Of a stretch of 64,000 nucleotides of DNA, positions 17,725 to 45,860 are shown piece after piece. The stretch's first letter is position 1, and every line of letters starts with the position of its first letter. The DNA lies in IMG/VR virus record IMGVR_UViG_2562617057_000010, positions 9,241-73,240 of that record. One strand, written 5' to 3'. The notes beneath the pieces were generated by a model that was not told where the DNA came from, searched no databases, and worked only from the letters and a program-made list of their open reading frames with translations. This DNA is from a virus (taxonomy: Duplodnaviria; Heunggongvirae; Uroviricota; Caudoviricetes). The position numbers and the translations under genes are program-made.

Positions 17725-17725
17725 T

Positions 17726-19545: not shown

Positions 19546-19551
19546 ACAGTA

Positions 19552-22307: not shown

Positions 22308-22318
22308 CAGGAGGCGTG

Positions 22319-27662: not shown

Positions 27663-28129
27663 GTCTTGATATGAACGTTGCCGTGGATGTGCGACGTATT
27701 CAGCTTGCGCTGGATGAACTGGGAACCGTCACACGTGACCGCGTCATTCCCCGTGTGATGGCTGCGGCGCTGCTGTCATCCACGGAACAGGCATTTGAAC
27801 GGCAGGCAGACCCGGATACAGGGAAAGGCTGGGAAGCGTGGAGCGATTCGTGGCTGGCATGGCGTCAGGATCATGGTTTTGTTCCGGGCAGTATTCTTAC
27901 CCTGCATGGCGATCTGGCACGCAGCATTACCACCGATTATGGACAGGATTATGCCCTGATTGGTTCGCCAAAAATTTATGCTGCCATTCATCAGTGGGGC
28001 GGTACACCCGATATGGCCCCCCGCCCGGCAGGCGTTCCTGCGCGTCCTTATATGGGGCTGGATAAGACCGGGGAACAGGAAATTTTTGATGCCATCAGAA
28101 AACGCGTCAGCGCCGCTCTGAGGCAATAA
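27659..28129 (+). CDS. virion morphogenesis protein (Mu G-like)
   Basis: 156-aa ORF overlapping F stop, followed by a ~200-bp noncoding gap as in Mu. Confidence 0.6.
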   Translation: MSLDMNVAVDVRRIQLALDELGTVTRDRVIPRVMAAALLSSTEQAFERQADPDTGKGWEAWSDSWLAWRQDHGFVPGSILTLHGDLARSITTDYGQDYALIGSPKIYAAIHQWGGTPDMAPRPAGVPARPYMGLDKTGEQEIFDAIRKRVSAALRQ

Positions 28130-28325
28130 ACAGAATCAGGCATAAAATCAGCCGCACAGATTTTTTAAAACGCGCCACGGGATTTTTAAACCGGTATTTA
28201 ACGGTGTATGAATCCCGTTTTATCTTCCTTCCACTTTCTTTCTCCAGTACTCAAATAGCATAACCCCAGATTTTCCCGCACCTCCCGCAAACTGACTGCT
28301 CACAAACCATGATGAGCAGCAGGAC
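28130..28325. promoter_or_regulatory. central noncoding gap; candidate strong gyrase site
   Basis: 196-bp intergenic region between G-like and I-like genes about 18.7 kb from the left end (element centre); assignment by conserved position only. Confidence 0.3.
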
Positions 28326-29411: not shown

Positions 29412-30325
29412 TTGTCACCCCGGCATCCATTAAAGCCCTGATGACCTCCTGGCGTAAGGATTTTCAGGGCGGTCTTGAAGACGCCCCGTCGCAGTACAGC
29501 AAAATTGCAATGGTGGTGAACTCTTCCACCCGCAGTAATACCTATGGCTGGCTGGGTAAATTCCCGACCCTGAAAGAATGGGTGGGTAAGCGAACCATTC
29601 AGCAAATGGAAGCGCATGGCTACTCTATCGCCAATAAAACGTTTGAAGGCACCGTGGGTATTTCCCGTGATGACTTCGAGGATGACAATCTGGGTATTTA
29701 TGCGCCGATTTTTCAGGAGATGGGCCGTTCTGCGGCAGTTCAGCCGGATGAGCTGATTTTTAAACTTCTGAAAGATGGCTTTACCCAGCCCTGCTATGAC
29801 GGTCAGAACTTCTTCGACAAGGAGCATCCGGTATATCCGAATGTGGACGGCACGGGCAGCGCGGTTAATACCTCCAACATCGTTGAGCAGGACAGCTTCA
29901 GCGGTCTGCCATTCTATCTGCTGGACTGCTCCCGCGCAGTCAAACCGCTGATTTTCCAGGAGCGCCGCAAACCGGAACTGGTCGCACGTACCCGTATCGA
30001 TGACGACCACGTTTTTATGGATAACGAGTTCCTGTTTGGTGCCAGCGCCCGCCGTGCTGCCGGTTACGGCTTCTGGCAGATGGCTGTCGCGGTAAAAGGC
30101 GATCTGACGCTGGATAACCTCTGGAAGGGCTGGCAACTGATGCGATCTTTTGAAGGTGATGGCGGTAAGAAGCTGGGCCTGAAGCCGACGCATATCGTTG
30201 TACCGGTCGGGCTGGAAAAAGCCGCAGAGCAACTGCTTAACCGTGAACTGTTCGCGGATGGCAATACCACCGTCTCCAACGAGATGAAGGGCAAGCTGCA
30301 ACTGGTTGTCGCTGACTACCTGTAA
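29408..30325 (+). CDS. major capsid protein (Mu T-like)
   Basis: 305-aa ORF overlapping protease/scaffold stop, followed by a hairpin at 30330-30358. Confidence 0.8.
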   Translation: MIVTPASIKALMTSWRKDFQGGLEDAPSQYSKIAMVVNSSTRSNTYGWLGKFPTLKEWVGKRTIQQMEAHGYSIANKTFEGTVGISRDDFEDDNLGIYAPIFQEMGRSAAVQPDELIFKLLKDGFTQPCYDGQNFFDKEHPVYPNVDGTGSAVNTSNIVEQDSFSGLPFYLLDCSRAVKPLIFQERRKPELVARTRIDDDHVFMDNEFLFGASARRAAGYGFWQMAVAVKGDLTLDNLWKGWQLMRSFEGDGGKKLGLKPTHIVVPVGLEKAAEQLLNRELFADGNTTVSNEMKGKLQLVVADYL

Positions 30326-30391
30326 CCGTCATTAAAAGGCGGTTCAGACCGCCTTTTAACCTGATTTAAAGGAAAAGGAGGAGCATGTGTT

Positions 30392-30802
30392 ATGTCAGGC
30401 ACTTCGCTTAATTCACAACGGCTGGACACTTCTCGCATCACTTGCACGGCGATTATTAAATGCCTTCGTCCGGTCTACCGCCGCGCCGGAATCGCCTTTA
30501 CACGTGGCGAAAACACCGTGGAAGTCACCGAAGAACAACTGGCGATCATTCGTGCCGACAGCGTGCTGTCTGTGGTATCTGCATCGTCAGCAGAAACGCT
30601 CGCTGAGGCTGGGGGGCTGGACGTTCTGGGTGTGGGCGATCTGAACGCCCGTATCCGTGCGACCGTTGCCGGTCTGGATAAGGCAAACCCGGAACACTTT
30701 ACCGCAGGGGGGGAACCCAAAGTGAAAGCCGTCAGTGCGGCGCTGGGGGAACCGGTAAGCAGCGCGCAAATCAAAGCGGCGCAGGCTGAGGCGGATGCAT
30801 GA
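30392..30802 (+). CDS. hypothetical head-associated protein (Mu gp35 position)
   Basis: 136-aa ORF with AAGGAGGAG upstream. Confidence 0.5.
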   Translation: MSGTSLNSQRLDTSRITCTAIIKCLRPVYRRAGIAFTRGENTVEVTEEQLAIIRADSVLSVVSASSAETLAEAGGLDVLGVGDLNARIRATVAGLDKANPEHFTAGGEPKVKAVSAALGEPVSSAQIKAAQAEADA

Positions 30803-31224
30803 ATTACGCGACGGTAAATGACCTGTGCGCCCGCTATACACGTACGCGGCTGGATATTCTCACCCGCCCTAAAACAGCGGACGGGCAGCCGGATGATGCC
30901 GTGGCAGAACAGGCACTGGCAGATGCTTCGGCCTTTATTGATGGCTATCTCGCCGCGCGCTTTGTTCTGCCGCTTACCGTCGTCCCCTCACTGCTGAAAC
31001 GGCAGTGTTGCGTGGTGGCCTGGTTTTATCTGAATGAATCACAACCCACCGAGCAGATCACCGCTGCCTACAGGGACACAGTGCGCTGGCTGGAACAGGT
31101 GCGCGATGGCAAAACAGATCCCGGCGTGGAAAGCAGGACGGCAGCCTCGCCGGATGGTGAAAACCTTGTGCAGGTGCAGTCTGACGCGCCGGTCTTCTCA
31201 CGAAAACAGAAGGGGTTTATCTGA
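30799..31224 (+). CDS. head-tail connector-type protein (Mu gp36 position)
   Basis: 141-aa ORF, 4-nt overlaps. Confidence 0.5.
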   Translation: MNYATVNDLCARYTRTRLDILTRPKTADGQPDDAVAEQALADASAFIDGYLAARFVLPLTVVPSLLKRQCCVVAWFYLNESQPTEQITAAYRDTVRWLEQVRDGKTDPGVESRTAASPDGENLVQVQSDAPVFSRKQKGFI

Positions 31225-31772
31225 TGCTGGAAGAAACCGAAGCCGCACTGCTGGCGCGCGTTCGTGAGTTGTTTGGGGCAACCCTGCGGCAGGTGGAACC
31301 CCTTACCGGCACATGGACTAACGAGGATGTGCACCGTCTCTTTCTGGCCCCGCCATCGGTATTTCTGGCATGGATGGGCTGTGGTGAGGGGCGTACGCGT
31401 CGGGAAGTTGAAAGTCGCTGGGCATTTTTTGTCGTGGCGGAGTTGCTGAACGGGGAACAGGTAAACCGGCCCGGTATTTATCAGATTGTGGAGCGACTGA
31501 TTGCCGGTGTTAACGGTCAGACGTTTGGCCCGACCACCGGGATGAGACTGACGCAGGTCAGAAATCTTTGTGACGACAACCGTATCAATGCCGGTGTGGT
31601 GCTTTACGGTGTTCTGTTCAGTGGCACTACCCCGCTGCCGTCCGTGGTGGACATGGATTCGCTGGATGATTACGAGCGCCACTGGCAGACCTGGAAATTC
31701 CCGGACGAAACCCCGGAATTTGCCGCACATATCAATGTGAATCAGGAAAAGGATCATGATGCTGAAAATTAA
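31224..31772 (+). CDS. tail completion-type protein (Mu gp37 position)
   Basis: 182-aa ORF. Confidence 0.5.
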   Translation: MLEETEAALLARVRELFGATLRQVEPLTGTWTNEDVHRLFLAPPSVFLAWMGCGEGRTRREVESRWAFFVVAELLNGEQVNRPGIYQIVERLIAGVNGQTFGPTTGMRLTQVRNLCDDNRINAGVVLYGVLFSGTTPLPSVVDMDSLDDYERHWQTWKFPDETPEFAAHINVNQEKDHDAEN

Positions 31773-31962
31773 ACCCGCAGCGGGAAAAGCCATCCGTGAC
31801 CCGCTCACGATGAAATTACTGGCGTCTGAGGGAGAAGAAAAGCCCCGTAACAGTTTCTGGATACGTCGCCTTGCAGCCGGTGATGTGGTTGAAGTCGGGA
31901 GCACCGAAAACACGGCGGATGATACCGACACTGCGCCGAAAAAACGGAGTAAATCGAAATGA
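31756..31962 (+). CDS. small protein (Mu gp38 position)
   Basis: 68-aa ORF overlapping both neighbours. Confidence 0.4.
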
Positions 31963-33446
31963 GCGATATTTCATTTAACGCGATCCCGTCAGATGTTCGC
32001 GTTCCTCTGACGTATATCGAATTTGATAACAGTAATGCCGTCAGCGGAACACCGGCACCCCGTCAGCGCGTGCTGATGTTCGGGCAAAGCGGAAGTAAAG
32101 CCAGTGCGGCACCAGACGTGCCTGTCCGTATCCGTTCCGGCTCACAGGCCAGTGCGGCGTTTGGTCAGGGTTCCATGCTGGCACTGATGGCAGATGCATT
32201 CCTGAACGCTAACCGCGTGGCGGAGCTGTGGTGTATCCCGCAGGGGAACGGCACCGGTAATGCTGCTGTCGGTGAAATCTCACTGTCCGGAACGGCAGGC
32301 GAAAACGGCTCGCTTGTGACTTACATTGCCGGTCAGCGACTGGCGGTATCTGTCGCAGCAGGTGCAACGGGAGCGGCGCTGGCTGACCTGCTGGTTGCCC
32401 GAATCAAAGGCCAGCCGGATTTACCGGTGACGGCAGAAGTTCGCGCAGACAGCGGAGATGATGACACCCATGCAGATGTGGTTCTGAGTGCAAAATTTAT
32501 TGGTGCATTATCTGCCGTGGACGTGCGCTGGAACTATTACGCGGGTGAAACCACCCCTTACGGGATTATTACGGCATTCAAAGCCGCCACCGGGAAAAAC
32601 GGCAACCCGGATATCAGCGCCAGTATCGCGGGGATGGGCGATCTGCAATACAAATACATTGTGATGCCCTATACCGATGAACCGAACCTGAACCTGTTAC
32701 GCACGGAATTACAGGAACGCTGGGGACCGGTCAATCAGGCTGATGGCTTTGCCGTGACAGTGCTGTCCGGCACGTATGGCGATATTTCCACGTTTGGTGT
32801 CAGCCGTAATGACCATCTGATCTCCTGTATGGGGATTGCCGGTGCACCGGAACCGTCATATCTGTACGCCGCCACACTGTGTGCCGTTGCCAGCCAGGCG
32901 CTTTCCATCGACCCGGCACGTCCGCTCCAGACGCTGACGCTGCCCGGCAGGCTACCGCCTGCGGTGGGCGATCGTTTCACCTGGTCAGAACGTAATGCGC
33001 TGCTGTTTGACGGCATCTCCACGTTTAACGTGAATGATGGCGGTGAAATGCAGATTGAACGCATGATCACAATGTACCGCACGAACAGGTACGGCGACAG
33101 TGACCCGTCTTATCTGAATGTGAACACCATCGCCACGCTGAGTTATCTGCGTTATTCGCTGCGAACCCGTATCACACAGAAATTCCCGCGCCACAAACTG
33201 GCAAGTGATGGCACCCGCTTTGCCACCGGTCAGGCGGTGGTGACACCTTCCGTGATCCGGACCGAGTTGCTGGCACTGTTTGAAGAATGGGAAAACGACG
33301 GGCTGGTTGAAGACTTCGACACGTTCAAAGAGGAGCTGTATGTCGTGCGTAATACAGCCGATCAGGATCGTCTTGATGTGTTGTGCGGCCCGAACCTGAT
33401 TAACCAGTTCCGCATCTTTGCGGCACAGATCCAGTTCATTCTGTAA
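31959..33446 (+). CDS. contractile tail sheath protein (Mu L-like)
   Basis: 495 aa (Mu L size), followed by 118-aa tube gene. Confidence 0.85.
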
Positions 33447-33455
33447 GGAGCATTT

Positions 33456-33812
33456 ATGGCAGGAAATCAGCGTCAGGGGGTGGCGTACATCCGTGTCAAT
33501 GGCATGGAGCTTGAATCAATGGAAGGTGCTTCCTTCACGCCGTCCGGCACCACCCGTGAAGAAGTGACCGGCTCGCGGGTTTACGGCTGGAAAGGGAAAC
33601 CCCGCGCCGCAAAGCTGGAATGCAAAATTCCGGGCGGTGGTGATATCGGTCTGGATGAAATCATCGGCTGGGAAAACATCACGGCAGAGTTTCAGGCAGA
33701 CACCGGTGAAACCTGGATGATGGCGAATGCCTGGCAGGCAGATGAACCGAAAAACGACGGCGGCGAAATTTCGCTGGTACTGATGGCAAAACAAAGCAAA
33801 CGCATTGCATAA
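33456..33812 (+). CDS. tail tube protein (Mu M-like)
   Basis: 118-aa ORF between sheath and chaperone. Confidence 0.8.
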   Translation: MAGNQRQGVAYIRVNGMELESMEGASFTPSGTTREEVTGSRVYGWKGKPRAAKLECKIPGGGDIGLDEIIGWENITAEFQADTGETWMMANAWQADEPKNDGGEISLVLMAKQSKRIA

Positions 33813-33821
33813 GGGGAAACA

Positions 33822-34256
33822 ATGGACGAAATGAATTTAAGTCCTGAAGCACAGGAACTGCATGACAGCATTGTGGCAGAACTTCAGTCCGGCGGGCTGA
33901 AACTGAAAGACGGCCTGCCGTTCGGCACCGGTGACGAGACTGAAATGCAGTATGACGTGACGCTGCGTGAACTGACCGCAGGCGATCTGATTGATGCCCA
34001 GATGGCGGCTGAAAAAGTGGTAATGAGCAAGGAAGGCCCGGTGCTGGTCAGTTCCCCGTCCCTGATGGGACTGGAAATGCTGCGCCGTCAGATTGCCGGT
34101 GTGGGCTGCCTCAAAGGCCCGTTATCACTGGCGCTGATGCGTAAGCTGTCCGTCGATGACTTCCAGCGTCTGTCGCTGGCAGTGGAGCTGCGCGACATGG
34201 CGGTGGCGGCATCGCTGACGCAAGAACGGGGGCGAGTGGCTGCGGTGCCGGAATGA
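33822..34256 (+). CDS. tail assembly chaperone (Mu gp41 position)
   Basis: 144-aa ORF between tube and tape measure. Confidence 0.55.
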   Translation: MDEMNLSPEAQELHDSIVAELQSGGLKLKDGLPFGTGDETEMQYDVTLRELTAGDLIDAQMAAEKVVMSKEGPVLVSSPSLMGLEMLRRQIAGVGCLKGPLSLALMRKLSVDDFQRLSLAVELRDMAVAASLTQERGRVAAVPE

Positions 34257-34307
34257 TATTGAGAAAGCGGCGACAGCGATTGGCATCATTCTGAAAAGTG
34301 GCCCGGA

Positions 34308-36473
34308 ATGGGCCTTGTCCCTCCCGCTGTCCCGCTTTTTCCGGCACTGCCAGCAGGCGAAAACCCTCTCTCAATATCACCGTTAAATCAGGAGATTTCT
34401 GTGACCGGGAAACGCTTAAAAGCGTCTGTCATTATTGATCTTAATGGCAATCTTTCCCGGCGTTCCCGCCAGTATTCGAACCAGATAAACGCCCTGTCCC
34501 GCAGCGGGCAGAGTTCCCTGCGTGCCCTGCGTATGGAGGTTGTGCGCGTTTCTGGTGCCATTGACAGAATGGGTTCTCTGTCAACCCGTACATTCCGAAT
34601 GCTGTCAGCCGGGGCGCTGGGTATCGCTGGCGTGGGTTACACCGCCAATAAACTGTTTATTGGTGCAGCCGCCCAGCGTGAGCAGCAGATTATCGCCATG
34701 AACTCGCTCTATCACGGCGATAAGGCCAGAGCACAGGCCATGATGGCGTGGGCGAAGCAGAACGCAAAAGAAACCACCTGGGGGCTGGGTGGTGTTCTGC
34801 AGGAGATCCGCACATCAACTGCGTTTGGCATGACTGATGCCCAGGTAAAACAGTTCATCACCATGCTACAGAACCAGGGCGCGATGCATGGCTGGGATTT
34901 ACCCACTGCACAGGGGGCTTCGTTACAGTTCAAACAGATGTTTGCCCGTCAGCAAATCACGGCGGCGGATGCCAACCTGCTGACCGGTTACGGTATCAAC
35001 GTTTACAAGGTGCTGGCAGATGCAACGGGTGAGGATGAGAAAAAAATCCGTAAGCTGGGTGAAAAAGGCAAACTGGGCCTGAAATCCATCCTGACGGTGT
35101 TCAGAATCTTACTGGAACAGTCAAAAGGCGCACAGGCGGCGGCCATGAACTCCTGGGACGGGATGATGGCCCAGATGGAGGGCAATCTGCTTGAGTTTCG
35201 TACAAAGGTGGCAAACAGCGGCCCCTTTGAAGAAATCAAGAACGAGATGCGCCGGGTACTTAACTGGCACGACATGGCGGATAAATCCGGGGAACTTGAC
35301 GCACTGGCAGAAAACATTGGTCAGAAATTTCTGACCACGTTCAGAACGGTAAAAATCGCGGCGCAGGAATTATGGCGCTGGCTGAAACCGGGTAAAGATG
35401 CGCTGGCATGGGTTGACCAGAATATTGCCAGCCTGAAAAAACTGGCTGCTGTTCTGGTGTCTGTCTGGCTTGCCAATAAAGCCCTGAGAGCAGGCTGGGC
35501 CGTGGCAAAACCTTCGTGGCAGGTTGCCAGTTACCCGTTTAAAACCGGGCGTCGTATGTGGCGCTGGATGCGGAACCGCAAACGTGGGCGGGCAGGTCTG
35601 CCGGTGCCGGATGCCATGACGTCTGAGACGCTGTTGCAGGGCACCGGCATTCAGCGTGTGTTTGTCATCAACTGGCCCCGTGGATTTGGTGGCTACGGGA
35701 GTGGCGGCGGTCGTCGCGGACGGAGCGGCGGAAGAATGGCCCCGCTGTTACCCCGCCAGCCGTTATTGCTGTCCGGGCCACAGCCGCTGGCATTACCTGC
35801 ACCACGCCCTGTACTGGCATTACCCCCACCCGGCGTACCGGTAACGGCACGGCCTGCACCATTACCTTTACCCGGTAAATCCGGTCTTCTGAGCAGGCTT
35901 GCAGGCAGTGCTGCCGGGCAACTGGTTACGGGAACGGTCGGAAAGCTGGCTGATGCCGGGCGTGCTGTTGGCGGGTGGTTTTCCGGTATCGGAAACAAAC
36001 TTGCAGGCAGTGCGATCGGTCGGGTTGTGACAAAAGGTGCCGGGGCGCTGGGCTGGATGGGGAAAGGTGCCGGTCGTGCGTTGTCATGTCTGGGTGGCCC
36101 GGTAATGGGGGCACTCCAGCTTGCCCCCGTCCTGATGGATGAGCAGGCGTCAACCCATGAAAAAGCAGGCGCAATTGGCAGTACAGCCGGTGCATGGCTC
36201 GGCGGTGCCGTTGGCAGCCTTGCCGGACCGCTGGGTACGGTTGCCGGTGCCACGCTGGGCAGTGTCGCCGGGGAGTATCTGGGCGGTTTTGTAACCGACC
36301 TGTATCAGAAATGGACGGCCCCGGATAAGGAACCGCAGGAACAAAAAGTGAATGCGGAAGCCTCGCTGCGCGTCGAACTTGGCGAGGGGTTACGCCTGAC
36401 CAGTTCCCGTGTCACCGAGGATGGTATGGGGCTGAATATTTACGCGGGCGATAACTACATTACGGGCTGGTAA
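34308..36473 (+). CDS. tail tape measure protein (Mu Y-like)
   Basis: About 700 aa, Gly/Ala/Pro-rich; alternative start GTG at 34401 with AGGAG upstream. Confidence 0.8.
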
Positions 36474-36477
36474 AACC

Positions 36478-37965
36478 ATGTTTGAAGATGCTTTAAATGC
36501 CGTTAATGCTGTCCGGGATAAAACCGGTGGAGGCAGGAAAACAACCGGCAAAGGCACGTTCCGTAACGTGCCGTTTCTCGTCATCGAGGAGCAAAAACAG
36601 GCTGGCGGACGTCGCCTGGTTAAACGCGAGTACCCGTTACGTGATACCGGCGGCGTCAATGACCTGGGGAAAAAGCTTCGCTCCCGTACATTCAGCGCCT
36701 GCATTCTGAACAGTAACGCAGAAACAGCCAGAGATGAAGCGGATGCGCTGATGGATGCTCTTGATGCTCCGGGCAGCGGTGAGCTGGTACATCCTGATTT
36801 CGGCACTGTGGACGTCATGGTGGATTCATGGGAATGCCGCACTAAAGCGGATGAACTGAATTATTACGCGTTCACCGTTACCGTTTATCCGTCGTTGCAG
36901 GATACTGCCCCGGACGCAGAAACAGACACCAGTGCAGCCGTACCGGCACAGGCTGTTGCTGTAACCGGTTCTCTGGGGGATACGCTGTCCTCTGTCTGGC
37001 AGACCGTAAAAGATGGCACTGCGGCGGCAACCGCCGTGATGGAAGCTGTAACCGGTGTCATCGATGATATCAGTGATGCGGTGGACAATCTGGGGGTTAC
37101 GCAGACTGTCAGCGGTCTGATGGGATCGCTTTCTGCGATGAAAGGCTCTGTGACCAGCCTGATTAACCAGCCTGCCATGCTGGCCTCCTCGCTGATGGGG
37201 GCGCTGTCCGGCGTTTCATCGTTATGCGATACCCGGACAGCATTTTCCACATGGAACCGTCTGGCGCAGCGATTCGAACGTCGCCATGCCGCCACCGCAG
37301 GCAGACAGGGGGCAATCACAACCTCGTACAACAGTCCGGTTGCAGAAAAAAATATTGCCACACTGAACTACGTCATGCTGGCAGCGGCGCAGACATACCG
37401 GGCAGAAGCTGCCAGCCAGGCACTGACTGCGGCACTGGATTTCAGTCGCCGGATGGATAATGCCGCCCGTACACCTGTACTGGATGCCCCGTCCACCACA
37501 ACCGGCACAGCCAGCGGGGCCAGCAGCACATCTGCTACCGTCACACAGGGACAGTTACAGTTAACTACCATAACCCCGAACGGCGGCTTTTCACAGGTAT
37601 CCTTTTCAGACAGTGGTACAGCCACGCCCCCGGTATTTGAAAGTGTGTCCGATATCGGAAAAACAGCCGCCATGCTGGGGGCTGCACTGGATACCGTCAT
37701 TCTGACGGCATCTGAGCAGGGCTTTTCGACAGACAGCGTTCAGCTTACGCAACTGCGTCTGCTGGTTGTTGCCGATCTGGAAAAACGCGGGCTGCAACTG
37801 GCGGGCAGTGAAACGCACCGCCTGCCGGAGACGATGCCTGCAATGGTGGCCCTGTACCGTTACACAGGAAACAGCCGGAACTGGCAACGGCTGGCCCGCA
37901 GGAACGGTATCAGCAACCCGTTGTTTGTTCCCGGTGGCGTCAGTATTGAGGTGATTAATGAGTAA
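36478..37965 (+). CDS. DNA circularization protein (Mu N-like)
   Basis: 495-aa ORF immediately after tape measure as in Mu. Confidence 0.7.
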
Positions 37966-39091
37966 TACCGTCACGCTGCGAACGGATGGCAGGCTTTTTA
38001 CCGGCTGGACGTCAGTCTCTGTCACCCGCTCGATTGAATCCGTAGCCGGATATTTTGAGCTGGGGGTGAACGTGCCACCGGATACGGATTTATCCGGGCT
38101 GGCACCGGGGAAGGCGTTCACGCTGGAAATCGAGGGGCAGATTGTCTGCACCGGTTATATCGATTCACGGCGACGCCAGATGACCGCTGACAGTATAAAA
38201 ATCACTGTCGCCGGACGTGACAAAACGGCTGACCTGATTGACTGTGCTGCCGTTTACAGTGGCGGACAGTGGAAAAACCGCACACTGGAGCAGATTGCGC
38301 GTGACCTGTGCGCCCCTTATGGCGTTACCGTTCGCTGGGAGCTTTCCGATAAGGAAAGTTCGGCAGTTTTTCCCGGCTTCACGCTGGACCATTCAGAAAC
38401 CGTTTATGAGGCGCTGGTGCGCGCCTCCCGCGCACGCGGTGTACTGATGACCAGCAATGCCGCCGGAGAGCTGGTATTCAGCCGGGCTGCCAGCACAGCC
38501 ACTGATGAGCTGGTTCTCGGAGAAAATCTGCTGACACTGGATTTTGATGAAGATTTCCGCGACCGGTTCAGCGAATACATTGTTAAGGGATATGCACGCG
38601 CGAACGGCGCTGACGGGGATGATATTGATGCGGAAAGTATTGTCTCCCGGAAAGGAACCGCCACTGACAGTGATGTGACCCGTTACAGACCGATGATCAT
38701 CATTGCTGACAGCAAAATTACGGCGAAGGATGCACAGGCCCGCGCCCTGCGTGAGCAACGCCGCAGACTGGCAAAATCCATCACTTTTGAGGCAGAAATT
38801 GACGGATGGACACGCAGGGACGGGCAACTCTGGATGCCGAATCTGCTGGTCACTATTGATGCCTCGAAATATGCCATCAAAACCACGGAATTACTGGTCA
38901 GCAAAGTCACCCTGATACTGAATGACCAGGACGGGCTGAAAACCCGCGTCAGCCTTGCACCACGCGAAGGCTTTCTGGTGCCGGTTGAAAGCGACCGCAA
39001 ATCCAGAGGGGATGGTAATGATGGCGTTGATGATCTGGTTGAGGCTTATTTCCGCAGACACCCGGAGAAAACACCACCATGGAAAGAGTAA
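37958..39091 (+). CDS. baseplate hub protein (Mu P / gp44-like)
   Basis: 377-aa ORF in Mu baseplate order N-P-Q-V-W-R. Confidence 0.7.
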
Positions 39092-39672
39092 ATGATTCCG
39101 CCCTGAACCGCCTGCTGATGCCGTTGATGCGTCGTGTACGGCTGATGGTGGCCCGCGCCGTTGTTAACGTGATTCACGACGGGCGAAAGGTTCAGAACCT
39201 GCAGGTCGGTCTGCTGGATGATGAGGAATCTGATGATGTGGAGCGCCTGCAAAATTACGGGCATTTCAGCGTTCCCCTGCCGGGCGCAGAAGCGCTGATT
39301 GCCTGTGTGGGCGCACAACGTGATCAGGGGATTGCCGTTGTGGTGGAAGACCGCCGCTACCGCCCGACAAATCTTGAACCGGGAGATGCAGGCATTTACC
39401 ACCACGAGGGGCATCGTATCAGGCTGACAAAGGACGGACGCTGCATCATTACCTGTAAAACGGTTGAGGTTTACGCTGATGAAAGTATGACCGTTGACAC
39501 CCCGAAAACCACGTTTACCGGCGATGTTGAAATTCTGAAAGGCCTCAGCGTTAAAGGTGAAAGTGACTTTGCAGGCAATATCAGCGCCCCGGATGCCATC
39601 ATCAATGGCAAATCGACGGATAAGCATATCCACCGTGGCGACAGCGGCGGAACCACGGGGCCGATGCAATGA
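39079..39672 (+). CDS. baseplate spike/assembly protein (Mu gp45-like)
   Basis: 197-aa ORF. Confidence 0.65.
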   Translation: MERVNDSALNRLLMPLMRRVRLMVARAVVNVIHDGRKVQNLQVGLLDDEESDDVERLQNYGHFSVPLPGAEALIACVGAQRDQGIAVVVEDRRYRPTNLEPGDAGIYHHEGHRIRLTKDGRCIITCKTVEVYADESMTVDTPKTTFTGDVEILKGLSVKGESDFAGNISAPDAIINGKSTDKHIHRGDSGGTTGPMQ

Positions 39673-40106
39673 CCGATTTAGCCATTATCTGGACGAACGG
39701 ACGCGGCGATATTGCACAGGATGGCATTGATATGCTGACCGACGACAGCCTGACAACCGATGTGACAATCTCCCTGTTTACCGACCGGCGCGCGCTGGAT
39801 TCTGACACCCTGCCGGATGGTTCAGATGATCGCCGTGGATGGTGGGGTGACAGTTACCGCGACCGCCCCATCGGTTCGCGGTTGTGGCTGTTATCACGTG
39901 AAAAAGCCACACCGGATACGCTGGAACGCGCCAGAGGGTATGCCGAAGAGGCGCTGGAATGGCTGAAAACAGCGGGCCGGGTAAGTGCGGTTAACGTCAG
40001 AGCGGAACAGTTACATCAGGGCTGGTTATACCTCTACATTGCACTGACATTACCGGATGGTTCCGTTATTCCTTATGAGTTTAAAGCAGCATTTAACGGG
40101 GTTTAA
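39669..40106 (+). CDS. baseplate wedge protein, gp25/gpW-like (Mu gp46 position)
   Basis: 145-aa ORF. Confidence 0.6.
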   Translation: MTDLAIIWTNGRGDIAQDGIDMLTDDSLTTDVTISLFTDRRALDSDTLPDGSDDRRGWWGDSYRDRPIGSRLWLLSREKATPDTLERARGYAEEALEWLKTAGRVSAVNVRAEQLHQGWLYLYIALTLPDGSVIPYEFKAAFNGV

Positions 40107-41189
40107 ATGGCTTATTCACCACCGACATTATCATCGCTGATTGCCCGTACAGAACAGAATATTGAACAGCGCCTGCCGGGTAGCTGGCCTCAGGCCCGTG
40201 AAAAAACGCTGAGTGCCATTGCTTATGCTCAGGCGGGCCTTGCTGCCGGTTGTTACGAGCATATTTCATGGGTTGGACGGCAGATTATCCCGTCGACAGC
40301 AGATGAAGATGAGTTGCTGGAGCACTGCCGGTTCTGGGGCGTGCGCCGCAAACAGGCGACAGCCGCCAGCGGCCCGCTGACTGTCACCACATCGGCAGCG
40401 ACCACCATTCCTGCCGGTACACGCTGGCAGCGTGCTGATGGTGTGGTTTACAGCCTGGCTGATGCCATTGTGATTGACCGTGCAGGAACGACGGAAATTA
40501 CCGTTACCGCACTGGCTGCCGGTGAGGCAGGAAATACCGGTGAGAATACCCTTTTAACGTTGATTACTCCGGTTGCCTGTGTTGTTTCCGATGCCATCAC
40601 TGTAAAAGGGTTTTCCGGTGGAGCTGATATTGAGAGTGCAGCGGAGCTGCTGTCACGGCTGGAATATCGTGTCCAGTATCCTCCGTTCGGCGGTAATCAG
40701 TTTGATTATGTTCGCTGGGCGCGTGAAGTCAGCGGCGTTACCCGTGCCTGGTGTTTTCCGACATGGAAAGGCGGTGGCACAGTCGGGGTGACGTTTGTTA
40801 TGGATAACCGGAGCAATATTTTTCCACAACCGGCAGATGTGGAACGTGTGGCGGATTATATCGCCGGTCATACTGACCCGATAACCGGCCTGATTGTCGG
40901 GCAGCCTGATGGTGTAAATGTCACGGTATTTGCGCCAGAGTCAAAGCCGGTAAATCCACGGATTTATATATCACCGAAGACTGCCGAACTGAAACAGGCC
41001 ATTACCCACGCCATTAATACCATGTTTTTTAATGAGGTGACGCCGGGCGGTGCACTTGCCCCCTCCCGTATTATCCGTGCGGTGGCAGGTGTTACCGGTC
41101 TGGATGATTTTGAAGTGCGTTTCCCGACAGAGATCCAGCGTTCGGAGAATACGGAACTGTTAACACCGGGGACAATTGAATGGCTGTAA
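40107..41189 (+). CDS. baseplate J-like protein (Mu gp47 position)
   Basis: 360-aa ORF. Confidence 0.75.
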   Translation: MAYSPPTLSSLIARTEQNIEQRLPGSWPQAREKTLSAIAYAQAGLAAGCYEHISWVGRQIIPSTADEDELLEHCRFWGVRRKQATAASGPLTVTTSAATTIPAGTRWQRADGVVYSLADAIVIDRAGTTEITVTALAAGEAGNTGENTLLTLITPVACVVSDAITVKGFSGGADIESAAELLSRLEYRVQYPPFGGNQFDYVRWAREVSGVTRAWCFPTWKGGGTVGVTFVMDNRSNIFPQPADVERVADYIAGHTDPITGLIVGQPDGVNVTVFAPESKPVNPRIYISPKTAELKQAITHAINTMFFNEVTPGGALAPSRIIRAVAGVTGLDDFEVRFPTEIQRSENTELLTPGTIEWL

Positions 41190-41722
41190 CACCCTGGCAG
41201 ACGGCCTTTCTGCAATTACTGCCGTCAGGGCTTGCCTGGAATAAAAGCCCCGACAGCAAATTATCTGCGCTGGCGCAGGCCATCAGCGACGTGATTGCCA
41301 CTGCGGCGGATGATGCGCGGCAAATACTGCGGGAGCGTTTCCCGTCCACATCCCGCTGGTATCTGGGTGAGTGGGAATCACTTCTGGGGTTGCCGGACTG
41401 TACAAGCGAAAACGGCACCCTGTCCGAACGCCAGCGGGCTGCCGCGAATAAAATGCGTATGACCGGCAATCTGAGTCGGCGCTTTTATGAATGGCTGGCT
41501 GCGCAGTACGGTTTTACCGTCAGGCTGACGGATTCCACAGAAGGCCAGTGGGTTACGCAGGTCAATATTTACGGTATTAAAAATTATCGCAACGCAACGG
41601 TGCTGGATAATGTTCTGACGCCGTTACGTGTTTATGAATCGGGTGCGCTGGAATGTTTACTGGAGAAATATAAACCCGCGCATCAGATTTATAAATTTGT
41701 TTACCATGACGGAGATAACTAA
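41180..41722 (+). CDS. tail protein (Mu gp48 position, gpI-like)
   Basis: 180-aa ORF before the tail fibre gene. Confidence 0.6.
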   Translation: MAVTPWQTAFLQLLPSGLAWNKSPDSKLSALAQAISDVIATAADDARQILRERFPSTSRWYLGEWESLLGLPDCTSENGTLSERQRAAANKMRMTGNLSRRFYEWLAAQYGFTVRLTDSTEGQWVTQVNIYGIKNYRNATVLDNVLTPLRVYESGALECLLEKYKPAHQIYKFVYHDGDN

Positions 41723-43233
41723 TGTTTTATATTGATAACGACAGCGGCGTAACCGTCATGCCGCCCGTATCCGCCCAGCGTAGTGCTATCGTTCGCTGGT
41801 TTTCAGAAGGTGACGGGAATAATGTTATCACATGGCCCGGCATGGACTGGTTTAATATTGTGCAGGCGGAGTTATTAAACACGCTGGAAGAAGCCGGTAT
41901 TCAACCGGATAAAACAAAATTAAACCAGCTTGCACTGTCCATTAAAGCCATTATGAGCAATAACGCGCTGCTGATAAAAAATAACCTCAGCGAAATTAAA
42001 ACTGCCGGGGCATCAGCACAGCGTACAGCACGTGAAAATCTGGATATCTATGATGCCAGCCTGAACAAAAAAGGACTCGTTCAGCTAACCAGTGCCACTG
42101 ACAGCCCCAGTGAAACGCTGGCAGCCACCGCAAAAGCGGTGAAAATTGCGATGGATAATGCCAGTGCCCGTCTGGCAAAAGACCGGAACGGAGCAGATAT
42201 TCCCAATAAGCCGCTGTTTATCCAAAACGTCGGTTTACAGGAAACGGTAAACCGGGCCAGGAACGCTGTGCAAAAAAATGGCGATACCTTGTCCGGCGGA
42301 CTTACTTTTGAAAACAACTCAATCCTTGCCTGGATTCGGAATACTGACTGGGCAAAGATTGGTTTTAAAAATGATGCCGACAGCGATACTGATTCCTACA
42401 TGTGGTTTGAAACAGGCGACAACGGCAATGAATATTTCAAATGGAGACACCGCATCATTGGCACCCGGCCTAAAGACCTGATGAATCTTAAATGGAATGC
42501 TTTGTCTGTTCTTGTTAAAGCCCTTTTCAGCAGTGAAGTGAAAATATCGACAGTCAATGCACTGAGGATATTTAATTCATCTTTTGGTGCCATTTTTCGC
42601 CGTTCTGAAGAATGCCTGCATATCATCCCTACACGAGAGAATGAGGGAGAAAATGGTAATATAGGGCCATTACGCCCCTTTACGCTTAATCTCAGAACTG
42701 GCCGGATAAGCATGGGGCATGGTCTGGTTGTTACAGGAGATATATTTGCAAACCGTTTTGCAATTAACAGTAGTACCGGCATGTGGATTCATATGCGTGA
42801 CCAGAATGTTATTCTGGGCCGTAATGCGGTATCCAACGATGGTGCGCAGGCATTGCTTCGCCAGGACCATACCGACCGTAAATTCGTAATTGGTGGGCTG
42901 GGGAATAAGCAATTTGGCATCTACATGATTAATAACTCAAGGACAGCCAATGGCACCGATGGTCAGGCGTACATGGATAATAACGGTAACTGGCTTTGTG
43001 GTGCGCAAGTTATTCCCGGCAACTATGGCAATTTTGATTCCAGATATGTGAAAGATGTTCGACTTGGTACTCGTGTTGTTCAGGTCATGCAAAGAGGCGT
43101 GATGTATGAAAAATCAGGTCATGTAATAACAGGGCTTGGCATTATTGGCTCTGTTGATGGTGATGACCCAGCAGTATTCAGACCAATACAAAAATACATC
43201 AATGGCACATGGTATAACGTCGCACAGGTATAA
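41722..43233 (+). CDS. tail fibre protein S (constant part plus variable part Sv)
   Basis: 503 aa; gix-like site at codon ~167; C-terminus ...RPIQKYINGTWYNVAQV shared with the S' cassette end (...PVQYCINGTWYNAGSI). Confidence 0.85.
   Translation: MFYIDNDSGVTVMPPVSAQRSAIVRWFSEGDGNNVITWPGMDWFNIVQAELLNTLEEAGIQPDKTKLNQLALSIKAIMSNNALLIKNNLSEIKTAGASAQRTARENLDIYDASLNKKGLVQLTSATDSPSETLAATAKAVKIAMDNASARLAKDRNGADIPNKPLFIQNVGLQETVNRARNAVQKNGDTLSGGLTFENNSILAWIRNTDWAKIGFKNDADSDTDSYMWFETGDNGNEYFKWRHRIIGTRPKDLMNLKWNALSVLVKALFSSEVKISTVNALRIFNSSFGAIFRRSEECLHIIPTRENEGENGNIGPLRPFTLNLRTGRISMGHGLVVTGDIFANRFAINSSTGMWIHMRDQNVILGRNAVSNDGAQALLRQDHTDRKFVIGGLGNKQFGIYMINNSRTANGTDGQAYMDNNGNWLCGAQVIPGNYGNFDSRYVKDVRLGTRVVQVMQRGVMYEKSGHVITGLGIIGSVDGDDPAVFRPIQKYINGTWYNVAQV
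42218..42243 (+). other. gix-like invertase crossover site inside S (left G-segment boundary)
   Basis: TTATCCAAAACGTCGGTTTACAGGAA, imperfect 12-2-12 dyad of the gix/hix/cix type; no inverted second copy found. Confidence 0.6.
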
Positions 43234-43236
43234 ATC

Positions 43237-43764
43237 ATGCAGCATTTAAAAAACATCAGGTCAGGAAACCCAAAGATAAAAGAGCAATACCAATTAACAA
43301 AGAATTTTGACGTAATCTGGTTGTGGACAGAAGACGGAAAAAACTGGTATGAGGAAGTGAAGAACTTTCAGCCAGATACAATAAAGATTGTTTACGATGA
43401 AAATAATATTATTGTCGCCATCACTAAAGATGCCTCCACGCTTAATCCTGAAGGCTTTAGCGTCGTTGAGGTCCCCGATATAACAGCAAATCGTCGTGCC
43501 GATGATTCCGGGAAGTGGATGTTTAAGGACGGAGCTGTGGTTAAGCGGATTTATACGGCAGACGAACAGCAGCAACAGGCCGAATCACAAAAGGCCGCAT
43601 TGCTTTCCGAAGCTGAATCAGTCATCCAGCCGCTGGAGCGCTCTGTCAGGCTGAATATGGCGACGGATGAGGAACGCGCACGACTGGAGTCATGGGAACA
43701 CTATAGTGTTCTGGTCAGCCGTGTGGATACGGCAAATCCTGAATGGCCACAAAAGCCTGAATAA
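43237..43764 (+). CDS. tail fibre assembly protein U
   Basis: 175 aa; paralog of U' on the opposite strand ([22 protein letters not shown] vs [22 protein letters not shown]). Confidence 0.8.
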
Positions 43765-43769
43765 AAATT

Positions 43770-43789
43770 AAGGCCCGATAGCGGGCCTT
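43770..43789. terminator. bidirectional hairpin terminator between convergent U and U'
   Basis: AAGGCCCG-ATAG-CGGGCCTT perfect 8-bp stem with A-run upstream and T-run downstream. Confidence 0.6.
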
Positions 43790-43792
43790 GTT

Positions 43793-44326
43793 TCATTCTG
43801 GTTGTTCTGGAAACGTTACTGGCAGGCTGGAGGTGTCTGTGGATTCGACCTTCTGCGCATAGAGCATCCACTCGGTTAATTTTTGTTTATTCTCGTCGGA
43901 AATGATGCCCAGCCGTAGCTGTGAGTCCCATAGCTGAGTTTTATCCCTGACAAGTTGCAACAGACTTTGCTTTTCATTTTCCGCCTGTTGCCTCTGTTCT
44001 TCCCCGGTATAAGTTCGCTTTATCACTACGCCATCTTTGAACATCCATTTACCCGAAATATCAGCCCGGCGATTTGCTGTAATATCAGGTAATTCAATGA
44101 CGCTTGCGCCTTCCGGATTAATTGCTGAAACATCCTTTTCAATACAAATAATAACGCCGTTGTGGTCATAGACCATTTTCAACGTATCAGGCTGAAAGTT
44201 CTTTTGCTCCTCATACCAGTTTTTCCCATCCTCTGTATAAAGCCATTTGATGTTAAATTGCTTTGTTAGCTGGTATTGCTCTTTTGTTTCAGGATTACCA
44301 GCAGAAATGTTTTTTAAGTGCATCAT
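43793..44326 (-). CDS. tail fibre assembly protein U' (alternative cassette, not expressed in this orientation)
   Basis: 177-aa intact ORF paralogous to U. Confidence 0.75.
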   Translation of the reverse strand: MMHLKNISAGNPETKEQYQLTKQFNIKWLYTEDGKNWYEEQKNFQPDTLKMVYDHNGVIICIEKDVSAINPEGASVIELPDITANRRADISGKWMFKDGVVIKRTYTGEEQRQQAENEKQSLLQLVRDKTQLWDSQLRLGIISDENKQKLTEWMLYAQKVESTDTSSLPVTFPEQPE

Positions 44327-44328
44327 CG

Positions 44329-44841
44329 TTAAATACTCCCCGCGTTATACCACGTTCCATTAATGCAATACTGAACTGGCCTTGCCTGAGTTGTATCAAT
44401 TAGTGCATCTCTGTTTGAGTTAACGGAACCGGTAACAACATAACCTGACCTGTCAGACCAGCCGGGACCATTCCATGTCTGAACAGATGACAGACCACCA
44501 AGGCGAATACCTGTAATAAACCTTGAGTTACATTCTGCCTGCGTATATGCGCCAACATCTCTCGCTGATGGCTTGCGTGTTGTGGTGTAAAACTCTGACC
44601 AGCCAGCCTCAAATCCATAACCATCACGCGCTGAACGATAAAAAATACCGCCGTTCTTATAATTCACACGGAACTGTACAGCAGGGCAACTCCCCGTATT
44701 CATATTGAAGTGGAGTATTAATGCTGTTGCGCCTTTGATATCTGCATCATAAACACCGCTAATCAATGCAATATAGAAAACGACGATCGAATCAATTGAA
44801 TCGATCGGTAATACAGATCGATTATGTCCTGATAACCACAC
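44329..44841 (-). other. S' variable tail-fibre cassette remnant, 5'-truncated
   Basis: C-terminal fibre-tip homology to Sv; in-frame stop immediately upstream of the GTG at 44841; the first ~20 codons coincide with the mom GATC control region. Confidence 0.6.
44785..44819 (+). promoter_or_regulatory. three clustered GATC sites upstream of com-mom (Dam-dependent mom control region)
   Basis: GATC at 44785, 44803 and 44816, 75-110 bp upstream of com ATG, matching the known Mu mom regulation layout. Confidence 0.6.
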
Positions 44842-44893
44842 TCACCCCATGATGTTTTTTAAGATAGTGGCGAATTGATGCAAAGGAGGTGAG

Positions 44894-45082
44894 ATGAAAT
44901 CAATTCGCTGTAAGAACTGCAACAAACTGTTATTTAAGGCGGGTTCCTTTGATCACATTGAAATCAGGTGTCCGCGTTGCAAACGTCACATCATAATGCT
45001 GAATGCCTGCGAGCATCCCACGGAGAAACATTGTGGGAAAAGAGAAGAAATCACGCATTCTGACGAAACCGTGCGTTATTGA
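44894..45082 (+). CDS. com: Com zinc-finger translational activator of mom
   Basis: 62 aa, [16 protein letters not shown]...[12 protein letters not shown], matching Mu Com as recalled from memory; overlaps mom start. Confidence 0.85.
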
Positions 45083-45728
45083 GTATGAAGGCCAGATTGT
45101 TGGCTATGGTTCAAAGGAGCTGCGCGTTGAAACCATATCCTGCTGGCTGGCCCGCACAATCATTCAGACAAAACATTACTCCCGCCGTTTTGTGAATAAC
45201 TCTTACCTTCACCTGGGAGTATTCAGCGGACGTGAGCTGGTTGGCGTTCTCCAGTGGGGATATGCCCTTAACCCCAACTCAGGTCGTCGTGTCGTGCTTG
45301 AAACGGATAACCGGGGTTATATGGAGCTGAACCGCATGTGGCTACACGACGACATGCCCCGCAACTCTGAATCACGGGCCATCAGTTATGCGCTGAAAAC
45401 CATCAGATTACTGTATCCATCAGTGGAATGGGTACAGTCCTTTGCAGACGAACGCTGCGGACGTGCTGGCGTTGTGTATCAGGCGTCAAATTTTGATTTT
45501 ATTGGCGGCCATGAAAGCACGTTCTACGAGCTGGATGGCGAGTGGTATCACGAGATAACGATGAACGCGATTAAGCGCGGTGGACAACGAGGCGTGTATT
45601 TACGGGCTAATAAAGAGCGTGCCGTGGTGCATAAATTTAATCAGTATCGCTACATCAGGTTCCTGAACAAGCGAGCAAAGAAGCGGCTAAATACTAAGCT
45701 ATTCAGGATTCAGCCATATCCGAAATGA
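45003..45728 (+). CDS. mom: Mom DNA modification protein (acetyltransferase-like)
   Basis: 241-aa ORF overlapping com, Mu Mom-like, last gene before the right end. Confidence 0.85.
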
Positions 45729-45748
45729 TCCCATTTAATGAATAAAAA

Positions 45749-45772
45749 AACAGCGGTTAATGCCGCTGTTTT
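45749..45772 (+). terminator. rho-independent terminator after mom
   Basis: AACAGCGG-TTAAT-GCCGCTGTT hairpin followed by TTTT, overlapping the innermost right-end repeat. Confidence 0.6.
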
Positions 45773-45846
45773 ATCTTGAATAACTTCCATATGCGCGCTT
45801 CTGGCTTATCTTGAATGATTTCCATATCTATCTTGAATAATTTTCC
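45771..45846 (+). repeat. Mu-like right end: three inverted transposase-binding-type repeats TTATCTTGAA (45771, 45806, 45829)
   Basis: Reverse complements of the left-end 10-mer, compactly spaced; outermost copy with flank (GGAAAATTATTCAAGATA) mirrors the left terminus (GGTAATTTATTCAAGATA). Confidence 0.6.
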
Positions 45847-45860
45847 GCGCTTTACTTTCG

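Follow-up and report, generated by a model that had tools for sequence, protein, structure and literature searches.

A Mu-type G segment that has probably lost the ability to invert through two successive deletions in an otherwise complete, mobile Escherichia coli prophage

With its invertible G segment, bacteriophage Mu is the textbook case of host-range hedging by DNA inversion. In canonical Mu, two inverted gix sites are recombined by the invertase Gin with the help of a Fis-bound enhancer, which lies in the 5' part of gin. Depending on the outcome, the constant 5' region of S is fused to Sv-U or to S'v-U', so that two host ranges are available. Laboratory mutants of Mu from the 1970s-80s (gin-minus and G/beta deletions) have a frozen fibre orientation, caused by loss of gin or of one G end, and still form plaques. 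In the Mu-like Shigella phage SfMu, G inversion is suspected to be absent, lysates obtained by induction and by infection having the same host range (PMC4406740). A literature search found no paper describing the G region of the Mu-like prophage of E. coli 53638, which is examined here.

The window (the whole stretch of DNA that was analysed, 64,000 nucleotides or 64 kb) matches E. coli 53638 (EIEC O144, AAKB02000001.1) at 100% identity and contains a Mu-like transposable prophage, the relevant features of which are collected in Table 1. Its fibre switch is read here, with a probability of roughly 85%, as a Mu-type G segment made unable to invert by two successive deletions, in an otherwise complete and mobile prophage. 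The element has defined ends at many unrelated sites: the left end (TATGACTAGG...) is common to six insertions, each with different flanks, and the right end (...CCGCGCTTTA) to six different flanks. In both cases where the sequence on each side is known, short 4-bp direct repeats border it, CTTT for 53638 and AGGA for CP026877.1/UViG; the target duplications made by Mu itself are 5 bp. When all Mu proteins were compared with the window by tblastn, the genes from B to mom were found at full length with 75-100% amino acid identity (75% for B and 90-100% for the late genes), the exceptions being gin, S' and gene 19, the last of which had no match in the window. The c, ner and A genes are heterologous to those of Mu in the same comparison, and the transposase carries the Pfam domains Mu-transpos_C and HTH_Tnp_Mu_1, so that a Mu-type transposase is present alongside B and the late genes through com-mom. 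Apart from the switch, the prophage is intact and recently mobile; it is not dying.

Table 1. Features of the prophage and its G region in the window (positions are those of the window)
Feature	Position	Strand	Evidence and remarks
Mu-like transposable prophage carrying the switch remnant	9487..45854 (36,368 bp)	+	Shared ends, Mu protein matches, Pfam
S, expressed tail-fibre gene, 503 aa	41722..43233	+	79% aa identity to Mu S, residues 1-502; Pfam Phage_fiber_2
S constant part	41722 to ~42217	+	Variable part follows the gix site
gixL, single surviving crossover site	42218..42243	+	Unique 26-mer; central TC at 42230-42231
U, tail-fibre assembly chaperone partnering S, 175 aa	43237..43764	+	94% identity to Mu U; Pfam Caudo_TAP
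Bidirectional terminator hairpin between convergent U and U'	43769..43790	both	Terminator-like sites on both strands
U', alternative chaperone, 177 aa, intact	43793..44326	-	97% identity to Mu U'; Pfam Caudo_TAP
S' remnant, C-terminal 143-145 codons	44329..44764	-	Mu Mup52 residues 186-328, 92%
S' ORF, 170 aa	44329..44841	-	GTG at 44841, stop codon immediately 5'
Junction of the putative second deletion (816 bp)	44761..44764		4 nt AATC assignable to either side
gin 3' end remnant	44762..44799	+	Tail ATCAATGCA, last 8 codons (IENDDRIN) and stop codon; alignment to Mu, L019 and PhiR68_1
mom upstream control region	44773..44819		GATC at 44785, 44803 and 44816; OxyR-like ATAG-N7-CGAT-N7-ATTG-N7-CGGT array
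com	44894..45082	+	Intact, 97% aa identity to Mu; Pfam Zn_ribbon_Com
mom	45003..45728	+	Intact, 98% aa identity to Mu; Pfam Mom

The initial annotation of this DNA described S-U and inverted U'-S' cassettes with one gix-type site inside S, and found neither a second, inverted gix beyond S' nor a serine invertase gene; all of this was borne out. The 26-mer TTATCCAAAACGTCGGTTTACAGGAA is present once in the window (42218-42243, plus strand), with an expectation of 0 from shuffled sequences, and equals Mu gixL/gixR but for a C to G change at position 12, adjoining the central TC. It spans codons 166-174 of the 503-codon S, at the boundary between constant and variable parts and in the same place as in Mu. 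An identical variant is found as the gixL of PhiR68_1, an intact phage bearing gin and gixR. The variant may itself be a poor substrate for inversion, by analogy with SfMu, for which a comparable 1-bp change has been proposed to impair inversion (PMC4406740). There is one gix only rather than two inverted crossover sites: every other 26-mer on both strands of the 64 kb has at least 9 mismatches from gix, the next best having 9, and within 41700-44900 inverted repetition is confined to U against U' (70%) and to the 3' ends of S and S' (40 nt, 75%). No serine invertase was detected in the 64 kb either by tblastn with Mu Gin (best E 0.05) or with an HMM of four Din-family invertases searched against all 1,211 six-frame ORFs (best E 0.69, 5.6 bits), and just the last 8 codons of gin are left beside the switch. 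Because the enhancer sits in the gin coding region, ~550 bp upstream of the mom start site (PMC3378877), it falls inside the Mu DNA deleted here (Mu 34500-35644), and no Fis-dependent enhancer remains.

The window is colinear with Mu from 41001 to 44764, up to S', and from 44771 onward corresponds to Mu 35645 onward. In alignments to Mu, D108 and PhiR68_1, the absent ~1.14 kb (Mu 34500-35644) comprises S' codons 1-185, gixR and gin minus its last 8 codons. The 5' 185 codons of S' are accordingly gone: similarity to Mu S' (Mup52) is confined to its residues 186-328, with a weak Pfam match to gp37_C, and all intact S' alleles cease aligning at window 44764. With Sv-U and U' complete and S' partial, two complete fibre C-terminal cassettes are not present. 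The longer S' ORF does begin directly after a stop codon, and its first codons (44771-44841) run antisense through the mom control region with its three GATC sites, both as previously noted; gene callers give a 145-aa version of this ORF, and the 170-aa form, looked up as a called protein, had no match. From 44771 rightwards the mom control region is conserved in Mu, D108 and SfMu, and Dam and OxyR have a described role there (PMC3378877). The operator boundary adopted here is a prediction from the consensus quoted in PMC2909390, as is, from hexamers and consensus, a mom transcription start at ~44872. The mom upstream region of the window type would end at about -101 and so leave out the Fis -123 site; regulation of mom is probably preserved in this allele.

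Approximately 20 of 41 mom-bearing Mu-like loci in IMG/VR (Com 63-73% identical) have no gin, gix or S', which would suit an ancestral state in which the phage never possessed an invertible segment. The remnants in the window (gixL, a full U', the S' 3' fragment and the last 8 gin codons) refute this, leaving it a negligible probability.

How the segment was lost was assessed from a set of closely related alleles. Compared with Mu alone, the gap resembles one event in which Mu 34500-35644 was swapped for 9 nt, and S' and the gin 3' end share the partial microhomology CTG(C/T)AT(C/A)A(T/A)AAACACC(CC)GC, as might be expected of a single-step deletion of ~1.14 kb from a Mu-like ancestor with intact gin. 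However, the 9 nt, ATCAATGCA, are unlike S' and unlike every intact gin allele, forming a lineage-specific tail that six sister loci (L077-L081 and L084) also have after gin codon 72. These sister alleles have the Com protein and right end of the window and still possess gixR, an S' of 328 aa and the first 72 codons of gin, after which comes ...GTACCAATCAATGCAATATAG; the tail ...AATCAATGCAATATAG that follows codon 72 in them is the same in the window. Since ATCAATGCA stands in the same register in all six, a single step would need an independent origin for it, and that course of events is considered unlikely. The right-hand 1,095 nt of the six loci are 99.8-100% identical to the window. In L078, positions 1-2051 align to window 42714-44764 (97.7% identity) and positions 2868-3962 to window 44761-45855 (100% over the 1,095 nt right of the junction), the difference between the two being 816 bp. 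At this junction the parent sequences read CCGCTA/TTCC in S' and GTACC/AATC in the right parent (the slash marks the break), and the S' allele of E. coli 503025 matches the window through ...CACCGCTA and diverges after it.

Loss by two successive deletions is therefore preferred to a single step, and the sister allele, in keeping S', gixR and gin codons 1-72, argues that the internal gin deletion came first. This first deletion, of ~0.32 kb, would have killed gin, leaving codons 1-72 and a short diverged tail, with the gix sites and both cassettes intact. A second, of 816 bp, would then have extended from S' codon 186 as far as a point 9-10 bp short of the ATATAG at the start of the mom operator, between ends sharing a few bases of microhomology (A/ATC), and would have removed S' codons 1-185 and gixR as well as the promoter, enhancer and remaining stump of gin. 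Its product would be the present arrangement, with gixL in S, a complete U' and the S' 3' 145 codons abutting the mom control region. Both deletion junctions, the anatomy of the locus and the intactness of the remaining prophage were observed directly; the order of the two deletions, resting on the shared AATCAATGCA tail, is probable, although this tail could in principle have been transferred from one allele to another by recombination. The initial annotation had ascribed the 5' truncation of S' to a deletion that took gixR and gin. The truncation (S' 186-328 only) and the gap relative to Mu and D108 stand, but the loss appears to have proceeded in two steps, with gin already dead at the second. 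Two other origins for the junction were rejected: the 9 nt ATCAATGCA are not untemplated filler or an S'/gin heteroduplex patchwork, as the sister allele already has them after gin codon 72, and a Gin-mediated deletion at the pseudo-gix ATATAGAAAACG (9/12 of a half-site) is at odds with junctions lying at least 12 nt left of the would-be crossover dinucleotide and with an other half-site that has no match.

Two of the sister loci, L077 and L080, share the same gspD insertion (lysogens GCA_030001855.1 and GCA_039870545.1; 99.92% identity over 3.6 kb) and have opposite G orientations. Both orientations at one insertion site with a dead gin imply a host invertase acting in trans, RecA-mediated exchange at the 34-bp repeats being a conceivable other route, and the sister allele is for this reason not locked. 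Unlike the window, it retains S' in full and gixR, together with 72 codons of gin and the promoter and enhancer of that gene.

Action in trans being plausible in principle, and L077 and L080 appearing to illustrate it, a switch that still works in the window was also considered, in which a host Din invertase (Pin-like) would act on gixL and a cryptic second site. Those two loci, however, keep gixR and the enhancer, of which the window has neither, and no site within 8 mismatches of gix occurs in the 64 kb. Moreover, because the 5' half of S'v is absent, inversion could not yield a complete S' fibre. A working switch is thus highly improbable. As the window has a single crossover site, lacks the enhancer and has no 5' part of S'v in frame, a functional alternative fibre would not be expected from either a phage or a host invertase. 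Colinearity with Mu, D108 and PhiR68_1 around the ~1.14 kb gap, which spans the S' 5' half, gixR and gin, supports the earlier proposal that fibre specificity is fixed in S/U: on this comparison the phage is predicted to be irreversibly locked in the S/U orientation and to make S/U fibres only, and these fibres are probably functional. U', an identical copy of whose protein sits within intact switches elsewhere, is complete but unexpressible, there being no upstream reading frame for its expression. A consensus promoter scan gave no leftward promoter for the S' remnant or U', and the proposal that the leftward mom P2 promoter now drives U' is unsupported.

The locked allele was found in several backgrounds. 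An identical junction lies beside a P2-like gpM/gpL flank (53638, SRR9425317), at a PAAR/RHS locus (CP026877.1, IMG/VR UViG 2850808358) and with a fliL flank (GCA_012751295.1), and the arrangement is the same in all four assemblies carrying it. The IMG/VR copy (UViG 2850808358) is 96.3% identical to the window at the left end and 99.1% at the right. As the doubly deleted phage occupies at least three different chromosomal sites, it must have stayed mobile. Short-read assemblies are often broken or confused by invertible segments, and several related contigs terminate within G, so that the 53638 draft assembly might be suspected of having collapsed a G segment present in both orientations. Against this, the junction is identical in independent assemblies from different strains with different flanking genes, and recurs in the 5.13-Mb record CP026877.1 and in a 1-4% diverged IMG/VR contig, which reduces an assembly artefact to a minimal probability. 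The exact junction was found in none of the GTDB representative genomes, JGI metagenomes or complete RefSeq E. coli genomes searched, and 10 of 10 metagenome contigs with a Mu-type operator have intact gin.

Other natural alleles have likewise lost the invertase and kept com-mom, with right breakpoints a few bp from that of the window. In one type (L032/33/34/37), the left breakpoint is at gin codon 55, and 3 of 4 loci also lack 11 bp of gixR. In the other (L028/L085/L086), which like the window type occupies several insertion sites, the left breakpoint is inside U', and there is a long single fibre gene and no gix at all. Across the four natural gin-loss alleles, left breakpoints are scattered (gin codon 55, gin codon 72, S' codon 186 and inside U'), and right breakpoints all fall within ~18 bp (Mu 35,62x-35,645), an interval situated between the end of the Gin DNA-binding-domain coding sequence and the first ATAG of the mom OxyR/Dam operator. 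Two of the alleles may share the same right-breakpoint nucleotide (.../GAACGCATATAG). Salmonella phage SJ46 (P1-like), with homology to the window from 44773, was tried as a fourth independent junction and rejected: its homology to Mu extends leftwards into gin from approximately codon 140, and its boundary is only apparent because the window's own junction ends the homology there.

It is tentatively suggested, as a possibility we hold to be rather doubtful, that loss of G inversion in Mu-type phages is recurrent and one-sidedly site-directed, and that phages with dead gin and intact gix flip G via a host Pin-type invertase. If so, the border of a protein-bound operator might act as a deletion hot spot, e.g. 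through replication pausing at the OxyR/Fis-bound mom region, or there might alternatively be strong selection for removing all of gin while keeping mom repressible, and fibre switching would turn host-dependent before its complete loss.

Together with its relatives, the locus would form a natural decay series, from an intact switch through a dead invertase with intact sites, in which inversion is still seen and is presumably driven in trans, to a locked state with fossil cassettes. All of these stages are found in phages that still transpose, which suggests that the switch is dispensable and has been repeatedly lost in E. coli and related lineages. One fixed host range is predicted for the 53638 Mu-like phage. 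In annotation, U'/S' remnants adjoining mom should not be taken for functional genes, and the alleles could serve as natural controls for studies of Din-invertase cross-talk. Understanding of the mechanism is unchanged, the sole possible new question being the clustering of right breakpoints at the mom operator.

In its order, Sc-gix-Sv-U / U'-S'v and then com-mom, the window resembles Mu, D108 and PhiR68_1 (DNA identity 88-94%), and the mom control region is the same in all four. It differs from these three phages in having no gixR, gin, Fis-dependent enhancer in gin or S' codons 1-185, and from Mu in an early region (c, ner, A) and transposon ends that are heterologous. The G region of SfMu is 93.6% identical to the window, but SfMu has gin and both inverted repeats, its suspected defect being a 1-bp change beside the crossover bases (PMC4406740). 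The locus is a case of ordinary decay, a loss-of-function derivative of the textbook system; whereas the gin-minus mutants of Mu are laboratory isolates, this allele occurs naturally and circulates among EIEC and related strains.

Alignment with Mu showed the window to be colinear with this phage from 41001 to 44764, that is up to S', and again from 44771 onwards, which corresponds to Mu 35645 onwards. Missing between the two is Mu 34500–35644, which comprises S' codons 1–185, the crossover site gixR, the gin promoter and all but the last 8 codons of the invertase gene gin. The Fis-binding enhancer for Gin sits inside the coding part of gin, ~550 bp before the mom start (PMC3378877), and so also belongs to the lost DNA. 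An S' allele from E. coli 503025 shows no difference from the window as far as ...CACCGCTA (44761) and diverges thereafter, and the gin/mom side of the junction is unambiguous from ATATAG (44771).

The initial annotation had described a G segment with one gix site, no second inverted site and no invertase gene, in which the S' frame directly follows a stop and begins in the triple-GATC mom control region; this was confirmed in every detail, and its interpretation is correct. The gix 26-mer, which would not be expected by chance, is present once in the window and differs from the Mu gix by a C to G change at position 12, beside the central TC dinucleotide, a variant that the intact phage PhiR68_1 has as its gixL. 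The 64 kb, scanned on both strands, contains no further gix-like site with up to 8 mismatches, and the inverted repeats within the segment are only the diverged U/U' and S/S' homologies. Searches for a serine recombinase encoded in the window were negative, by tblastn with Gin (best E 0.05) and with an HMM of four Din-family invertases against all 1,211 six-frame ORFs (best E 0.69). The stop codon lies immediately 5' of the GTG of the S' ORF, whose codons 1 to 23–24 are the mom control region read in antisense.

Locations of the features compared (window coordinates unless a locus is named)
Feature	Location	Details
Mu-like prophage	9487-45854	36,368 bp
Repressor, ner, transposase A	9487-12750	Heterologous to Mu, as is the left end
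Right end of prophage	45729-45854	Heterologous to Mu
P2-like flanks of insertion	8914-9486; 45855-46562	gpL (head completion, PF05926) and gpM (small terminase, PF05944)
Direct repeats	9483-9486; 45855-45858	CTTT
P2-like capsid, scaffold, terminase genes	46574-50765	
Switch to mom	41722-45728	S (503 aa), U (175 aa), U' (177 aa, convergent with U), S'-like ORF (minus strand), com, mom
gix 26-mer	42218-42243	
GTG of S' ORF	44841	
GATC sites	44785; 44803; 44816	
Palindrome	44784-44807	CGATCGAATCAATTGAATCGATCG, 22/24, across first two GATC sites of mom control region
Breakpoint region, window	44750-44775	
Breakpoint region, L078 (sister allele)	2840-2880	
Breakpoint region, L032	4740-4790	Allele of L032, L033, L034, L037: gin codon 55 joined to ...AACGCATATAG
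Breakpoint region, L028	4740-4790	U' 3' part joined to ...GAACGCATATAG; one long fibre gene, no gix site
Breakpoint region, L085, L086	near 3002	
Shortened gixR, L032, L034, L037	near 4560-4590	Outer 11 bp lost (TTTTAGATAAT)
Inversion boundary, L077; L080	2016-2055; 794-833	
SJ46 (L064)	1870-2135	Mu homology at and past 3' end of pin
Junction, site 1	Between gpL and gpM of P2-like prophage	53638; Logan assembly of SRR9425317
Junction, site 2	Adjoining PAAR/RHS locus	CP026877.1; IMG/VR UViG 2850808358
Junction, site 3	Adjoining fliL	GCA_012751295.1

Between the two sides of the junction are 9 nt, ATCAATGCA, that match neither parent. A reading of these as filler was dropped once sister-allele loci, found by looking up the window Com protein in public assemblies, had resolved their origin. 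Six such loci (L077–L081 and L084) share the Com of the window and its right end ...CCGCGCTTTA, and keep a full S', gixR, the gin promoter and gin codons 1–72, followed by ...CATGAACCAGGCAAACGTACCAATCAATGCAATATAG. In one of them, L078, identity to the window is 100% across 1,095 nt right of the junction and 97.7% across 2,051 nt to the left, and the two differ by exactly 816 bp. A history of two events is the most economical: a first deletion inside gin, with ~0.32 kb lost net, would have been followed by an 816-bp deletion joining S' ...CCGCTA/TTC to ...GTACCA/ATC (slashes mark the breakpoints), which have only a few bases in common. The proposal that a deletion truncated S' at its 5' end and removed the right gix site and gin is supported by the Mu alignment as to what was lost, but the loss most probably took two steps.

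Over 12.5 kb, the window matches AAKB02000001.1 (assembly GCA_000167915.2) at 100% identity; two papers identify this record as enteroinvasive E. coli 53638, serotype O144. The switch is carried by a Mu-like prophage whose ends were set by comparing insertions with common termini and different flanks. In tblastn with all 54 Mu proteins, B to mom matched at full length with 75–100% amino acid identity, except that gin was absent, S' was represented by residues 186–328 only, gene 19 was unmatched and the c-ner-A early region was heterologous. The transposase retains the Mu transposase domains, and the prophage is an essentially complete phage rather than a decaying remnant. It splits the head operon of a P2-like prophage. 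At both insertions with two known flanks, perfect 4-bp direct repeats bound the element (CTTT in the window, AGGA in the flanks of loci L061/L018), whereas a 5-bp target duplication is typical of Mu; its termini are 5'-TATGAC...CTTTA-3' instead of TG...CA. Repeated TATCTTGAATAA / TTATTCAAGATA motifs occur three times at each end. The same left end was found in IMG/VR phages of a gin-less group with diverged Com (L062 and L038, one contig), and the window phage is therefore a mosaic of two Mu-like lineages.

An identical junction was found in four assemblies at three insertion sites, which excludes an assembly artefact and shows that transposition continued once the deletion had occurred. The copy at the PAAR/RHS site is 96.3% identical to the window at the left end and 99.1% at the right. 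Window-type junctions are rare, being absent from 5,426 complete E. coli genomes, GTDB species representatives and JGI metagenomes. The window and the IMG/VR copy (L005) differ at 5 positions in 1,561 nt (44356, 44376, 44405, 44480 and 44562), all within the silent S' remnant, whereas the 1,084 nt separating the junction from the right end contain none. Because Mu S' also differs from the window at three of these five, exchange with other S' alleles is suggested rather than random drift.

Among 41 mom-bearing loci in IMG/VR, ~16 contained a canonical G segment with gin and ~20 belonged to a diverged group (Com 63–73% identical) without gin, gix or S', so that transposable phages with mom commonly lack an invertible fibre segment; the rest were gin-loss alleles. 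Diverged loci L035 and L038–L055 carry com-mom with a different GATC-containing control region. All 10 metagenome contigs with a Mu-type operator had an intact gin. Three of the four loci with gin cut at codon 55 have also lost the outer 11 bp of gixR, which is intact in the fourth (L033), a further step in the piecemeal decay of this system. The L028-type allele was present in two complete E. coli genomes at different insertion sites.

Left breakpoints of four gin-loss alleles are spread over ~2 kb, whereas their right breakpoints fall within ~18 bp, between CCCCGC(C/G)AAACGA(A/G)CGC and ATATAG, with which the mom operator begins; the breakpoint of the L032 type may coincide to the nucleotide with that of the L028 type, immediately before GAACGCATATAG. 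To one side of this interval the sequence coding for the Gin DNA-binding domain ends, and to the other lies an OxyR-like ATAG-N7 array, which we infer from the consensus quoted in PMC2909390. Deletions stop short of going further right because the mom operator must be kept, but this does not explain why they always reach the interval, for which a hot spot or additional selection are candidates. Separately, the P1-like Salmonella phage SJ46 matches Mu from ~gin codon 140, across the mom promoter region, as far as the start codon of com (45/60 to 57/60 identities per 60-nt alignment block), followed by an opposite-strand invertase gene fragment, and this stretch resembles the remains of an exchange in which invertase regions of the Mu and P1 types took part.

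Two of the sister loci, L077 and L080, represent a single insertion of the prophage at gspD: along 3,643 nt, of which 2.2 kb are flanking DNA, they are 99.92% identical. Both have gin truncated at codon 72, yet their G orientations are opposite. Homology stops 14 nt outside gixR, with S' following in one locus and inverted Sv in the other. It follows that the segment flipped once lysogeny was established, with no functional invertase from the phage itself. The enzymes Gin, Pin, Cin and Hin cross-complement one another, and a host Din-family (Pin-type) enzyme is the most likely agent, the alternative being RecA-mediated exchange at 34-bp repeats.

For the window allele, with one crossover site left and the enhancer, the invertase and the 5' half of S'v gone, inversion to a functional S'-U' fibre would be impossible, even with invertase supplied in trans; the fibre would be fixed in the S/U orientation, as originally proposed. 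No consensus leftward promoter was found upstream of the U'/S' fragment, and both U' and the S' fragment appear to be silent fossils. The mom transcription start is estimated at ~44872 from ACCACA-19 nt-TAAGAT hexamers and the T-tract described in PMC3378877, which would place the junction at ~-101; on this numbering, the three GATC sites and the C-binding region would be kept, a Fis site centred at -123 lost and one centred at -98 clipped. The locus derives by loss of function from a system that is thoroughly understood, and its value lies not in a new mechanism but in a natural decay series and in two side observations, the clustered right breakpoints and the inversion despite a dead gin.
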